A stretch of 4,116 bases of DNA from the IMG/VR virus record IMGVR_UViG_2534681992_000021, positions 1-4,116 of that record, one strand, 5' to 3'. The notes beneath the pieces were generated by a model. It had not been told where the DNA came from, ran no database searches, and worked only from the letters and a program-made list of their open reading frames with translations. Shown here piece after piece: positions 871-4,116 of this stretch. The translations under genes and the position numbers were made by a program. Numbering within the stretch: position 1 is the first letter of the stretch; every line of letters begins with the position of its first letter. The DNA is from a virus. Lineage: Duplodnaviria; Heunggongvirae; Uroviricota; Caudoviricetes.

Positions 871-1947
871 ATGCTTAATACTGTAAAAATATCCAGTTGT
901 GAGTTAATCAACGCTGATTGCCTGGAATTTATCCAGACCTTACCGGAAAACTCTGTCGATCTGATAGTCACAGACCCGCCATACTTTAAAGTGAAGCCCG
1001 AGGGCTGGGATAACCAGTGGAAGGGCGACGATGATTACCTGAAGTGGCTGGACCAGTGTCTGGCGCAGTTCTGGCGGGTGCTGAAACCTGCCGGAAGTCT
1101 TTACCTGTTCTGTGGCCATCGCCTGGCATCTGACATTGAAATCATGATGCGTGAACGCTTCAATGTGCTGAACCATATTATCTGGGCGAAGCCGTCCGGA
1201 CGCTGGAACGGGTGCAACAAGGAAAGCCTGCGGGCGTATTTTCCGGCCACAGAACGCATTCTGTTCGCGGAACATTATCAGGGGCCGTATCGTCCGAAAG
1301 ATGATGGCGATGAGGCGAAGGGCAGGGCACTGAAACAGCATGTGATGGCCCCGCTGATTTCTTACTTTCGTGATGCGCGTGCTGCTCTTGGGATAACGGC
1401 AAAACAGATTGCAGATGCCACAGGAAAGAAAAACATGGTGTCGCACTGGTTCAGTGCCAGTCAGTGGCAGCTACCGAACGAAAGCGATTATCTGAAATTA
1501 CAGTCGCTGTTTGCCCGGGTGGCAGAAGAGAAACATCAGCGGGGAGAACTGGAAAAGTCCCATTACCAACTGGTCAGCACATACAGTGAGCTGAACCGGC
1601 AGTACATGGAACTGCTGAGTGAATATAAAAATTTGCGGCGGTATTTCGGTGTGACGGTGCAGGTGCCGTACACCGATGTGTGGACGCATAAACCGGTGCA
1701 GTACTATCCAGGGAAACATCCGTGCGAAAAACCGGCAGAAATGCTGCGGCAGATAATCTGCGCGAGCAGTCGTCCGGGTGACCTGGTGGCGGATTTTTTC
1801 ATGGGTTCTGGCTCAACCATAAAAGCAGCTATGGCGCTCGGGCGTCGTGCAACTGGTGTTGAACTGGAGGCAGAACGTTTTGCGCAGACCGTTAAGGAGA
1901 TTAGTCACATCCTTACATGCTCAATTGATGACGGGAAGGATGGATAA
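871..1947 (+). CDS. DNA methyltransferase, N6-adenine/N4-cytosine amino-MTase, beta-class motif order (358 aa), apparently orphan
   Basis: Complete ORF ATG 871 to TAA 1945-1947. Catalytic motif IV DPPY (VDLIVTDPPYF) near the N-terminus and SAM-binding motif I FxGxG (DFFMGSGST) near the C-terminus, which is the beta-class arrangement (PF01555-like). No restriction endonuclease candidate nearby. Target specificity cannot be read from the sequence. Confidence 0.9.
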   Translation: MLNTVKISSCELINADCLEFIQTLPENSVDLIVTDPPYFKVKPEGWDNQWKGDDDYLKWLDQCLAQFWRVLKPAGSLYLFCGHRLASDIEIMMRERFNVLNHIIWAKPSGRWNGCNKESLRAYFPATERILFAEHYQGPYRPKDDGDEAKGRALKQHVMAPLISYFRDARAALGITAKQIADATGKKNMVSHWFSASQWQLPNESDYLKLQSLFARVAEEKHQRGELEKSHYQLVSTYSELNRQYMELLSEYKNLRRYFGVTVQVPYTDVWTHKPVQYYPGKHPCEKPAEMLRQIICASSRPGDLVADFFMGSGSTIKAAMALGRRATGVELEAERFAQTVKEISHILTCSIDDGKDG

Positions 1948-2058
1948 AGATATGGTCAGTTCAGGCTGTGAAGCAAGTAGACAGATAAGGCTGCAATAAA
2001 AACTGACAATAGTAAAATAGCTTTTTCTCAGGTAGTCATGAATACGATCTCTTAAAGC

Positions 2059-2078
2059 GCCCGCTGATACCAGCGGGC
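2059..2078. other. Stable hairpin (8-bp GC-rich stem GCCCGCTG/CAGCGGGC, 4-nt loop) about 110 bp after the methyltransferase stop, no U-tract
   Basis: Perfect inverted repeat read directly; neither strand has a following T-run, so it is not a canonical intrinsic terminator. Could be an RNA 3'-end/processing structure or protein site. Confidence 0.4.
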
Positions 2079-2193
2079 AATACATACTGGCATTAATGTT
2101 AAGTTCAGGGATAATTCATCGTATTTTGTGGTACGACGCTATCAATATTAATAAACAGTATTTTTCATGTAAAATTTCTGTTTTTTTGATCTG

Positions 2194-2388
2194 ATTCTCG
2201 TTTCCTGGGTTATGATGTTGTTGTGAACCATGCTGTTGAATGATAATGTTCGGATATAAAATTGTTGCTGATATGTAGCGCAGTGAGCAGGTGGTATTTC
2301 TGTTGCTGAGTGTACGGATACAGTGCTTCCCTCCCTCAGCGGGGGGGGGCAGGTGTGCTGTGGTTTTAGAGACGCCGGAAACGAGAAT
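2194..2388. repeat. 12-bp perfect inverted repeat pair (ATTCTCGTTTCC 2194-2205 / GGAAACGAGAAT 2377-2388) bracketing a 171-bp segment
   Basis: Read directly. The bracketed segment contains the G9 tract and a 9-bp direct repeat TGTTGCTGA (2263-2271, 2301-2309). Confidence 0.5.
2341..2349. repeat. Homopolymeric G9 tract (C9 on minus strand) in non-coding DNA
   Basis: Nine consecutive G read directly at 2341-2349. Confidence 0.9.
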
Positions 2389-2719
2389 GATGCGGGTTTG
2401 CTGGTGCCGGGATAGAGTCGCCGGAGGTCATGACATAGAGCAAAAAAGGAATGTGCATGCAAATACACACCTCTTCGGAGAGCTCTTCTTTATATGGATG
2501 AGCCTCAAGGTCAATAGTTTATCTGTTATGTATTCATATGTTGTTACTTATATAATCCATACGGGCATATCATCAGTACACACATACTATTATGGCATTT
2601 TATTTTTGTTTTAACTGAATTCCCGGGGCACTCTTTTTGATTTCTGATAAGGAACCAGAATTTTCTGTTAAATGGTGTCACGTTGTAAATGGTTAATGGA
2701 AGCAGCTTATTATCCATAA

Positions 2720-2743
2720 TCACACCTGAGTTAACAGGTGTGA
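2720..2743. repeat. Perfect 9-bp inverted repeat TCACACCTG-agttaa-CAGGTGTGA (operator-like palindrome or RNA hairpin)
   Basis: Arms 2720-2728 and 2735-2743 are exact reverse complements with a 6-nt spacer; no flanking U-tract. Confidence 0.5.
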
Positions 2744-3020
2744 GAATACTTCCGGGTGGCAGGAACACATCTGACTGATACCAGATTATCAACTTTATTT
2801 TACACCATACAGTTGAAAACGTTATTCCGCTTGATGGGCATATCACTGTGTCAATAACTATCCATTCCATCTTTTAACCTTCTCGGTACACATTGCTTTC
2901 GATTGTTTTGCTAAAAATCATAGTCAATAAATCAGTGTAACTCATTGAAAAAGATCGTCTTCTTTGTCTTCCTGGGGTTTTCTTTTCTAATTTTGTATCA
3001 CTTTGGTTCAAGTTGTTTCA

Positions 3021-3109
3021 TTTTTTTGTAATACAAATTAGCAGGATGAGCGGGAATATAAAAAAATCGGATGTTTTTGTAATGGATATTATTTTTTTGT
3101 AAAATAATG
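3021..3109 (+). repeat. Three direct copies of TTTTTGTAA (3023-3031, 3074-3082, 3094-3102) in an A/T-rich block upstream of the esterase gene
   Basis: Read directly; each copy contains a -35-like TTGTAA. Confidence 0.5.
3077..3105 (+). promoter_or_regulatory. Candidate sigma70 promoter for the esterase gene: -35 TTGTAA (3077-3082), 17-bp spacer, -10 TAAAAT (3100-3105)
   Basis: Hexamers and spacing read directly; sits about 65 bp upstream of the ATG at 3172 in A/T-rich DNA. Sequence prediction only. Confidence 0.35.
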
Positions 3110-3171
3110 TATTTTTATTTAAATCTCTATCAGAAAAGAATTTATTGTTCCTTTATATGGTGGAAAAGGTC

Positions 3172-4116
3172 ATGGTATTTAAACACTACGATGTGGTCAG
3201 GGCGGCGTCGCCGTCAGATCTTGCGGAAAAGCTGACACAAAAACTGAAGGAGGGGGGGCAGCCATTTGGCAGCCCGGTGGCCATCACGCCTTATACTCTG
3301 ATGCAGGCCATTGCGGCGGAAGGTGATGTCACCACACCTGTGTTGGTGAAGCCGTCGGATGGAGAAGGCACAGTAATCAGCGCCACCAGAGACCCGGAGT
3401 ATTACTTTGTTGTGGTTCTGGCGGGGCAGTCAAACAGCATGGCATATGGTGAAGGCCTTCCGCTGCCGGAGACATATGACCGTCCGGACCCGCGTATTAA
3501 GCAGCTGGCGCGCCGCAGTACGGTGACACCGGGCGGTGCAGCATGCAAATATAACGACATCATTCCGGCGGACCATTGTCTGCATGATGTGCAGGACATG
3601 AGCCGCCTTAACCATCCGAAAGCGGACCTGTCAAAGGGGCAGTACGGAACCGTGGGGCAGGGGCTGCATATCGCCAAAAAACTGCTGCCGTTTATACCGG
3701 CGAATGCGGGCATTCTGCTGGTTCCGTGCTGTCGTGGTGGTTCAGCGTTCACCACCGGAGCTGATGGCACATACAGTGACGCGAGTGGTGCCTCGGAGAA
3801 TTCAACCCGCTGGGGTGTGGACAAGCCGCTGTATAAGGACCTTATCGGTCGAACAAAAGCAGCACTGAAGAAGAATCCGAAAAATGTGCTGTTTGCCGTG
3901 GTGTGGATGCAGGGGGAATTTGATTTTGGCGGTACGCCGGCAAATCACGCAGCACAGTTTGGTGCGCTGGTTGATAAATTCCGTGCAGACCTGGCGGATA
4001 TGGCAGGTCAGTGCGTCGGTGGCTCTGCTGGCGGTGTTCCCTGGATATGCGGGGACACGACGTATTTCTGGAAGCAGAAGAACGAATCCACGTACCAGAC
4101 GGTGTATGGCAGCTAT
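3172..4116 (+). CDS. nanS: Prophage sialate O-acetylesterase, NanS-p/YjhS family (N-terminal 315 codons; 3'-truncated by window edge)
   Basis: Frame open from ATG 3172 through the window end with no stop, which is why it is missing from the ORF track. Translation MVFKHYDVV...VVVLAGQSNSMAYGEGLPLPETYDRPDPRIKQLARRSTVTPGG...WICGDTT... carries the GQSN(S/M) catalytic-serine motif of the SASA/DUF303 esterase family and closely resembles E. coli NanS/YjhS and the nanS-p genes that lie downstream of stx in Stx prophages. GGTGGA 8 nt upstream of the ATG is a plausible ribosome-binding site. Confidence 0.9.
   Translation, partial: MVFKHYDVVRAASPSDLAEKLTQKLKEGGQPFGSPVAITPYTLMQAIAAEGDVTTPVLVKPSDGEGTVISATRDPEYYFVVVLAGQSNSMAYGEGLPLPETYDRPDPRIKQLARRSTVTPGGAACKYNDIIPADHCLHDVQDMSRLNHPKADLSKGQYGTVGQGLHIAKKLLPFIPANAGILLVPCCRGGSAFTTGADGTYSDASGASENSTRWGVDKPLYKDLIGRTKAALKKNPKNVLFAVVWMQGEFDFGGTPANHAAQFGALVDKFRADLADMAGQCVGGSAGGVPWICGDTTYFWKQKNESTYQTVYGSY

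Follow-up and report, generated by a model that had tools for sequence, protein, structure and literature searches.

An iraM-family gene and a putative decayed STnc100-type sRNA gene in the late-operon slot of an stx-negative lambdoid prophage

The closest described counterparts of the locus analyzed here are small anti-adaptor proteins of RssB and a family of phage-borne small RNAs. In case of IraM (YcgW) of Escherichia coli K-12, 14 residues that contact RssB have been assigned to three clusters (I-III), and the structural relationship of IraM to PmrD has been described in the same work (PMC10844676). The homologue IraL, which is 59% identical to K-12 IraM, has been shown by experiment to stabilize RpoS (PMC4045071), and as IraL works at this degree of identity, it supports the view that the anti-adaptor function survives such divergence. 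On the RNA side, the STnc100 family overlaps the Hfq-binding sRNA EcOnc27/sRNA103 that is encoded downstream of stx2B (PMC12711010, PMC12370729), and it has been reported to be related to the PasD sRNAs of EPEC (bioRxiv 10.64898/2026.05.13.724894). In our search of the literature, we found no paper on a phage-borne IraM and no published test of an effect on RpoS in STEC or EPEC.

The window, i.e. the whole stretch of 4,116 nucleotides that was analyzed, covers the early-late junction of a lambdoid prophage, starts with the C-terminus of the antiterminator Q, which lies ahead of the pR'/tR' region with its terminators at 332-348 and 378-395, and continues with a 65-aa ORF and the late-operon gene of a DNA adenine methyltransferase (871-1947, plus strand), which was identified as an ORF with NCBIfam DNA-methyltransferase matches and by the RefSeq annotation of an identical locus. 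At its other end lies the gene of a NanS-p-type sialate O-acetylesterase (DUF6645/SASA; 3172-4116, plus strand), which runs off the window, whose start is the one annotated in the identical locus, and whose Stx-phage homologues are annotated as yjhS or as SASA esterase. The tract between the methyltransferase stop at 1947 and the esterase ATG at 3172 (1948-3171, 1224 bp) had been regarded in a preliminary description as a region in which none of the ORFs is credible and good ribosome-binding sites are lacking. That description was correct in its coordinates, in the higher A+T content of the tract (37.1% G+C, compared to 51.4% and 56.2% for the methyltransferase and esterase genes, respectively), in the presence of a G9 run, and in the number of mutually overlapping ORFs of 106-108 aa, of which there are exactly three: 2148-2468 on the minus strand (106 aa), 2291-2614 on the plus strand (107 aa) and 2544-2870 on the minus strand (108 aa). 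Its statement that the tract is full of repeats and palindromes was too strong, as there are only short repeat families, the best of which is T7GTAA with three copies, and as promoter-like and terminator-like sites are not more frequent across the window than in shuffled sequences. The premise of a gene-free tract does not hold, since the homology search that had been proposed as its touchstone reveals a conserved iraM gene over 327 of the 1224 bp, preceded by a Shine-Dalgarno-like AGAAGG (2878-2883, minus strand, read from the sequence) 7 nt before its ATG. The earlier view is thus in part supported, and this for the non-coding two-thirds of the tract only, which amount to about 900 bp.

The ORF at 2544-2870 on the minus strand is, judged by its sequence, the gene of an IraM-family RssB anti-adaptor of 108 aa. 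The protein matches NCBIfam NF007393, a subfamily rather than an equivalog model, with 144.2 bits relative to a curated cut-off of 121 (E 1.6e-42), whereby residues 1-107 cover profile positions 1-110 of 114. It is 55% identical to K-12 IraM over 106 aa, it matches the IraM chain of PDB entry 8TWD with E 2e-29, and it retains all residues that are invariant in an alignment of 17-20 family sequences, including four C-terminal cysteines and the CPYG motif. In the RefSeq annotation, the gene is iraM (WP_001443281.1, “anti-adapter protein IraM”), and the same feature lies under every tract match listed; in a locus of 99.9% identity, the CDS is annotated on the minus strand at what are positions 2544-2870 of the window, and at least 30 E. 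coli genomes in RefSeq have iraM annotated there. The AF2 model comprises strands within residues 3-66 and a helix at 69-77, with a pLDDT of about 74-92 over residues 1-80, and its best PDB match is 8TWD_A (TM 0.89, rmsd 1.2 Å), followed by PmrD (4HN7). The protein is therefore predicted to adopt the PmrD-like antiparallel beta-barrel plus helix fold of IraM.

The gene as such is already known, as iraM is annotated in the identical RefSeq prophages. Among phage records, 46 contain an IraM homologue, often without annotation, and these are chiefly records of Stx2c and Stx2a phages; a family scan with one genome per species gave seven loci only, in Escherichia, Shigella and Citrobacter. The tract as a whole has a narrow distribution: neither megablast nor blastn found a match to it among 50,697 phage records, and megablast detected it in 44 of 5426 complete E. 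coli genomes, with 28 full-length matches of 98.9-99.9% identity. For these reasons, an interpretation of the whole tract as one single element was rejected.

The iraM gene of this lineage is under purifying selection. The dN/dS ratio is 0.17 relative to the homologue of E. coli STEC299 and about 0.1 relative to the homologue of a Stx2a phage, with a range of 0.09-0.17 among pairs. Variation within the lineage was assessed with 23 whole-tract copies from RefSeq genomes and IMG/VR (18 distinct sequences), which together show 20 SNP sites and seven indel loci. None of these 27 variable loci lies inside the 327-bp CDS, an outcome with a probability of about 2e-4 under a uniform model, and the encoded protein is identical in all 23 copies.

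Of the 14 positions at which K-12 IraM contacts RssB, nine have the same residue in the window protein, and these comprise all five residues of cluster I, which touch the RssB receiver domain, two of five in cluster II and two of four in cluster III. The changes in clusters II and III (T13S, C14S, L75I, H63N, I64V) are conservative, and they count as a point against the anti-adaptor reading. From the nine identical contact residues and from IraL as a precedent for activity at comparable divergence, we infer that the window protein would bind RssB and shield RpoS from ClpXP.

The regulation of this iraM may differ from that of its K-12 counterpart. Its upstream region does not align with that of K-12 iraM, and matches to the PhoP-box pattern have three mismatches each and are about as frequent as in shuffled sequences (15 found, 12.3 expected). 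As there is no PhoP box above chance level, a control by Mg2+ starvation as in K-12 cannot be assumed. K-12 iraM is reportedly silenced by H-NS, as Battesti and colleagues are said to have described in 2012; in case of the window gene, the base composition makes H-NS silencing plausible, as a candidate mode of control. The promoter and the 5' UTR of iraM are presumably located in the intergenic region 2871-3171, which separates the divergently oriented iraM (minus strand) and esterase (plus strand) genes, has a G+C content of 28.2%, and contains the T7GTAA repeats (at 3020, 3071 and 3091) as well as a promoter-like site on the minus strand that was found by consensus scan (3083-3055). Within this region, the part shared with STEC299 is 2871-3018, and 11 of the variable loci of the 23 tract copies fall into 2871-3171. 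An ORF of 45 aa with a TTG start (2874-3011, minus strand) was considered and rejected as a gene: four of the variable sites fall within it and it differs from STEC299 by an indel, and because of this variability the segment is treated as 5' UTR or promoter. The earlier suggestion of a regulatory region has partial support in the very AT-rich segment 2871-3171.

To understand the rest of the tract, the related prophages are informative. The backbone genes on both sides share about 92-94% identity with those of Stx2a-converting phages. In phage Stx2_EH2201, the gene order is Q, a small ORF, methyltransferase, three tRNAs, stx2A, stx2B, iraM on the minus strand, and esterase; in the Stx2a phage LC567829, it is methyltransferase, three tRNAs, stx2AB, STnc100, iraM on the minus strand, and esterase; and STEC299 has that layout without stx. 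Rfam, which contains this sRNA family as RF02076, assigns STnc100 in these relatives to the plus strand, in the interval that separates the cargo from iraM, with its terminator 20-40 nt from the iraM stop, and the convergent STnc100/iraM pair is also found in E. albertii and in another E. coli. The slot in the window lacks both stxA/stxB and the tRNA cluster: ARAGORN detects no tRNA in the tract, and there is no similarity to Stx2A or Stx2B. Our best explanation, which we regard as a whole as quite probable, is that the tract represents a cargo (“moron”) slot in the late operon of an stx-negative, Stx-phage-like lambdoid prophage, with an iraM-family gene as its one functional gene and a non-coding rest.

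A comparative alignment with related prophages, as had been suggested in the preliminary description, indeed reveals conserved blocks, as homology to STEC299 is confined to 1948-2203 and 2470-3018. The block 1948-2203 follows the methyltransferase gene, was delimited by blastn to STEC299 and by alignment, has a G+C content of 35.5%, and is non-coding; it is shared with other prophages at about 82% identity and precedes the tRNA cluster there. It contains a strong hairpin, GCCCGCUG-AUAC-CAGCGGGC (2059-2078), with a folding energy of -17.4 kcal/mol (z -3.3) on the plus strand and of -18.6 kcal/mol on the minus strand, which lacks a U-tract on the plus strand and is unchanged in three prophage types and in all 23 copies. 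A consensus scan furthermore detects a promoter-like site (TTAATA-16 nt-TAAAAT, 2148-2175, plus strand), both hexamers of which are kept in STEC299 and SHP24. In the relatives, this site precedes the tRNA cluster, and in the window it thus appears to be a promoter of the tRNA-cluster type that has been orphaned. Between the two conserved blocks, there is a lineage-specific filler (2204-2469) at the place of about 970 bp of STEC299, which comprise three tRNAs, a small DUF3927-like ORF that was recognized there by alignment and translation, without annotation, and most of STnc100. At the same position, Stx2a phages carry three tRNAs, stx2AB and STnc100.

The 3' part of the filler and the adjoining nucleotides (2320-2495, plus strand) look like a decayed sRNA gene of the STnc100 type. 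The segment is positioned as STnc100 is elsewhere, tail-to-tail with iraM and upstream of the nanS-p esterase, and in collinear semi-global alignments with three STnc100 copies it reaches z 6.0-7.2, a score that none of 300 shuffles attains. Two landmarks provide this signal, namely the first hairpin, which is C-rich/G-rich and has a GCGG loop, and the terminator motif; the middle of the segment by itself is barely above shuffles, and the same holds for local Smith-Waterman alignment of the region with STnc100. The assignment to a decayed STnc100 gene hence rests on the position and on two landmark motifs in the correct order. The 3' arm of the first hairpin contains the G9 run (2341-2349), and in those 19 of the 23 near-identical copies in which it can be counted, the run has a length of 6, 7, 8, 9, 11 or 12 residues, differences that may in part be assembly errors. 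Moreover, three of the 23 copies have lost 62 bp (2287-2348) between GCAGGTG repeats, and one genome carries an IS600 insertion at 2485-2487.

Which other readings of the tract have to be considered? The segment 2320-2495 could in principle encode a functional, highly diverged sRNA of the STnc100/PasD type that is transcribed from the plus strand in convergence with iraM, and the collinear similarity to STnc100, the high stability of the first hairpin (-19.1 kcal/mol), and the tail-to-tail position, which is that of STnc100 in four other loci, would agree with this, as would the report that PasD and STnc100 have diverged past BLAST recognition and are both expressed (preprint 10.64898/2026.05.13.724894). 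We nevertheless regard this as unlikely, because covariance and profile searches, folding and variation all point the other way. With the STnc100 model of Rfam (gathering score 47 bits), there is no match at E<=1 in the window and none at E<=10 in the 361 nt of 2200-2560, where chance snoRNA-type matches are all that appears, while the relatives score 141-150 bits, and nhmmer with an STnc100 or a combined STnc100 and PasD profile does not find a match in the tract either. The fold of the segment is no better than that of shuffled sequences (z -0.76, compared to -2.81 for a true STnc100 copy), its terminator has a 4-bp stem with -3.3 kcal/mol (z +1.1), where true copies reach -20.6 and -23.1 kcal/mol, and is absent from the output of the terminator scan, and the closing helix GCAUGGUG/CACCAUGC as well as the internal CCGGG hairpin of STnc100 are both missing from the aligned window sequence. 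In addition, the copies tolerate the 62-bp deletion at the 5' end, G-runs of 6-12 and the IS600 insertion. An identity with PasD was also rejected, since there is no similarity to PasD1 or PasD2 of E2348/69 (coordinates from PMC8550237; z about -1 to 0). The Rfam scan that had been recommended detects no family in the tract (window searched at E<=1; the single match is a weak suhB on the tR' terminator, outside the tract), and the earlier idea of a functional non-coding RNA is thus not borne out. The idea of a decayed cargo gene fares better, as 2320-2495 looks like such a remnant, but of an sRNA gene and not of a protein gene, and no remnant of stx or of the DUF3927-like ORF was found.

Protein-coding interpretations of the remaining tract are less convincing still. 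It is highly improbable that the ORF 2291-2614 on the plus strand represents a real lineage-specific gene of a small protein of 107 aa. In those copies that retain the 62 bp, the frame does remain open 3' of the G-run, but the ORF belongs to no Pfam or NCBIfam family, its sole match among 5.8 billion proteins is a single cluster of this lineage with 96% identity, its GTG start has no Shine-Dalgarno sequence, shifts with the length of the G-run and is deleted in three copies, the homologous segment of STEC299 has this frame closed, and the ORF overlaps the 3' end of iraM and what in the relatives is an sRNA plus its terminator. Five of the seven SNPs in this ORF are at third codon positions, and four are synonymous, which speaks in its favor at p about 0.05 in a post hoc test. 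This excess of third-position SNPs is marginal and not fully explained. The ORF 2148-2468 on the minus strand was rejected as a gene, as it belongs to no family, as the reading frame of its C-terminal two-thirds varies with the G-run, and as each of its five SNPs is non-synonymous. These last two properties also argue against the view that the tract is a decayed protein-coding cargo gene such as stx. The slot is exactly that of stx2AB in Stx2a phages, and the composition is foreign, as would be expected for such a remnant, but tblastn with Stx2A, Stx2B, DUF3927 and the 247-aa slot protein of E2348/69 gave nothing (best E 0.34), and no phage record is matched by blastn. We therefore give this possibility hardly any weight.

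With a slot that retains iraM next to a decayed STnc100-type gene as the preferred reading, the following scenario can be proposed. The slot lies between the Q/pR'-proximal methyltransferase gene on the one side and the nanS-p esterase and lysis genes on the other, and iraM would be its one functional gene. The AT-rich region 2871-3171 would drive transcription of iraM in the lysogen, against the direction of the late operon and without dependence on it, and the IraM product would sequester RssB and thereby block the delivery of RpoS (sigma-S) to ClpXP, which could raise the general stress resistance of the lysogen. Upon induction, the Q-modified RNA polymerase that starts from pR' would need to pass through the whole tract before it arrives at the esterase and lysis genes. 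As the terminator scan detects no intrinsic terminator in the tract on either strand, late transcription would run antisense through iraM. Both the expression of iraM in lysogens and this antisense read-through are inferred steps. Scan and folding recognize no terminator 3' of iraM, which is a point against the proposed reading. It would be a further, rather speculative step, to which we assign a low probability, to regard STnc100 and iraM as a conserved convergent sRNA/anti-adaptor module in the toxin slot of Stx-type phages that could couple the prophage state to sigma-S, with IraM produced in the lysogen and iraM silenced upon induction by late or sRNA transcription in antisense; the sRNA half of such a module would be decayed here, and the poly-G hairpin (6-12 G) together with the orphan promoter may then modulate antisense transcription into iraM.

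What is new in the locus are minor points, namely the conserved convergent pairing of STnc100 and iraM, the apparent decay of STnc100 in an stx-negative lineage, and the hypervariable poly-G run. The locus is also a reminder that odd AT-rich ORFs that are oriented against a phage late operon can be true lysogenic-conversion genes, and that the seemingly empty toxin slot of an stx-negative prophage still bears a candidate modulator of the host stress response. If phage IraM indeed stabilizes RpoS in non-O157 STEC and EPEC, where O111, O121 and O103 strains bear the tract, it could contribute to the acid and stress tolerance of these bacteria.

How does this slot then compare to the known systems? 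PasD1 and PasD2 of EPEC E2348/69 (PMC8550237) are encoded in the corresponding Q-to-esterase/lysis slot of lambdoid prophages, and their 5' half matches the STnc100 HMM, whereas the window sequence has no detectable similarity to PasD. STnc100 and the putative remnant agree in position and strand relative to iraM, in the C-rich/G-rich first hairpin with GCGG loop, and in the CCUCU-YCGG-AGRG terminator motif in the correct order, but only the former passes Rfam and has the closing helix, the CCGGG hairpin, the terminator stem and a thermodynamic signal. K-12 IraM shares with the window protein the family model, the length (107 and 108 aa), the predicted PmrD-like fold, the cluster I contact residues, an AT-rich gene and a context of mobile elements, as K-12 iraM lies next to prophage e14. 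K-12 IraM is an RssB anti-adaptor that is induced on Mg2+ starvation. As to differences, no PhoP box was detected upstream of the window gene, and the two are only 55% identical and occupy distinct genomic slots, that of the window being a lambdoid late operon. IraL of UPEC CFT073 resembles the window protein as an IraM homologue that is similarly diverged from K-12 IraM, but it is encoded on the potB island, is active in log phase and contacts the RssB N-terminal domain alone (PMC4045071). The iraM genes of Stx2a and Stx2c phages (for example LC567829, phage 1717 with accession NC_011357, and phage 2851) encode proteins of about 62% identity and, in contrast to the window, are accompanied by tRNA genes, stx2AB and an intact STnc100, but they are found in the same slot, oriented in the same way against late transcription, with the methyltransferase gene upstream and the nanS-p esterase gene downstream.

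The convergent arrangement of the sRNA gene STnc100 and iraM, the gene of the RssB anti-adaptor, is conserved. Both genes lie tail-to-tail in a Stx2a phage (locus L002, 4755-4980), in E. coli STEC299 (L003, 4050-4310), and in E. albertii and another E. coli (L032 and L033, each at about 4320-4540), and in all four cases only 20-40 nt separate the STnc100 terminator from the iraM stop codon. In the literature searched, we found no mention of this convergent pair. In strain 2014C-3599, the degenerate STnc100-like sRNA remnant is separated from the iraM stop by an IS600 element (L005, 4540-5803, corresponding to window positions 2485-2487) with a target duplication of 3 bp, and iraM is intact.

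The remnant region itself varies among copies. The poly-G run at 2341-2349 has a length of 6, 7, 8, 9, 11 or 12 nt in copies that are otherwise 99% identical and that come from several strains and sequencing platforms, which reflects either a hypermutable slippage tract or, in part, assembly errors. A deletion of 62 bp within 2287-2355 is present in three copies (O111:H8 strain 8E and two IMG/VR contigs), and the direct repeat GCAGGTG (7 bp, 2287-2293 and 2349-2355) marks its boundaries. Overlapping this region on the plus strand is the ORF 2291-2614, in which five of the seven SNPs fall on third codon positions and four of the seven are synonymous; its frame is closed in STEC299, and no homologues were found beyond the lineage.

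In STEC299, the 5'-end of STnc100 also occurs a second time in partial form (L003, 3423-3476), directly upstream of the tRNA cluster and fused there with a tRNA-Ile of which only the 3' half is present, and this fusion indicates that recombination has occurred at the STnc100 5'-end motif. A promoter-like site (TTAATA-16 nt-TAAAAT, window 2148-2175) is conserved in STEC299 and SHP24, where it precedes the tRNA clusters. As the tRNAs are absent in the window, this site here faces the sRNA remnant and is oriented antisense towards iraM. A 17-nt inverted repeat with 88% complementarity follows (2194-2210 and 2372-2388, with 161 nt between the arms), for which the chance expectation is roughly estimated at about 0.05 and whose left arm coincides with the breakpoint of the STEC299 homology. 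Closer to the methyltransferase gene, shortly 3' of it, a GC-rich 8-bp hairpin with an AUAC loop (2059-2078) is invariant and kept in three prophage types; on the plus strand it has no U-tract, and on the minus strand it is followed by GCUUUAAG.

At the protein level, the alignment of the IraM family reveals four invariant cysteines (C81, C92, C97 and C102) in the C-terminal tail, which comprises residues 81-105 of the window protein and ends in CPYG. These features suggest metal binding or disulfide formation. The tail had been removed prior to crystallization in the structure 8TWD (PMC10844676), and in the AlphaFold2 model of the window protein its pLDDT is below 50.

The pR'/tR' region (300-410) contains two terminator-like hairpins, at 332-348 and at 378-395, the latter followed by T7, and the terminator of this region gave the only Rfam match in the window (suhB/mmgR, E 0.21). 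Stx phages have their short StxS-type transcript at this position (Sy et al. 2020). The match to most Stx2a phages starts only at position 374, and the window thus carries a Q/pR' allele that differs from theirs.
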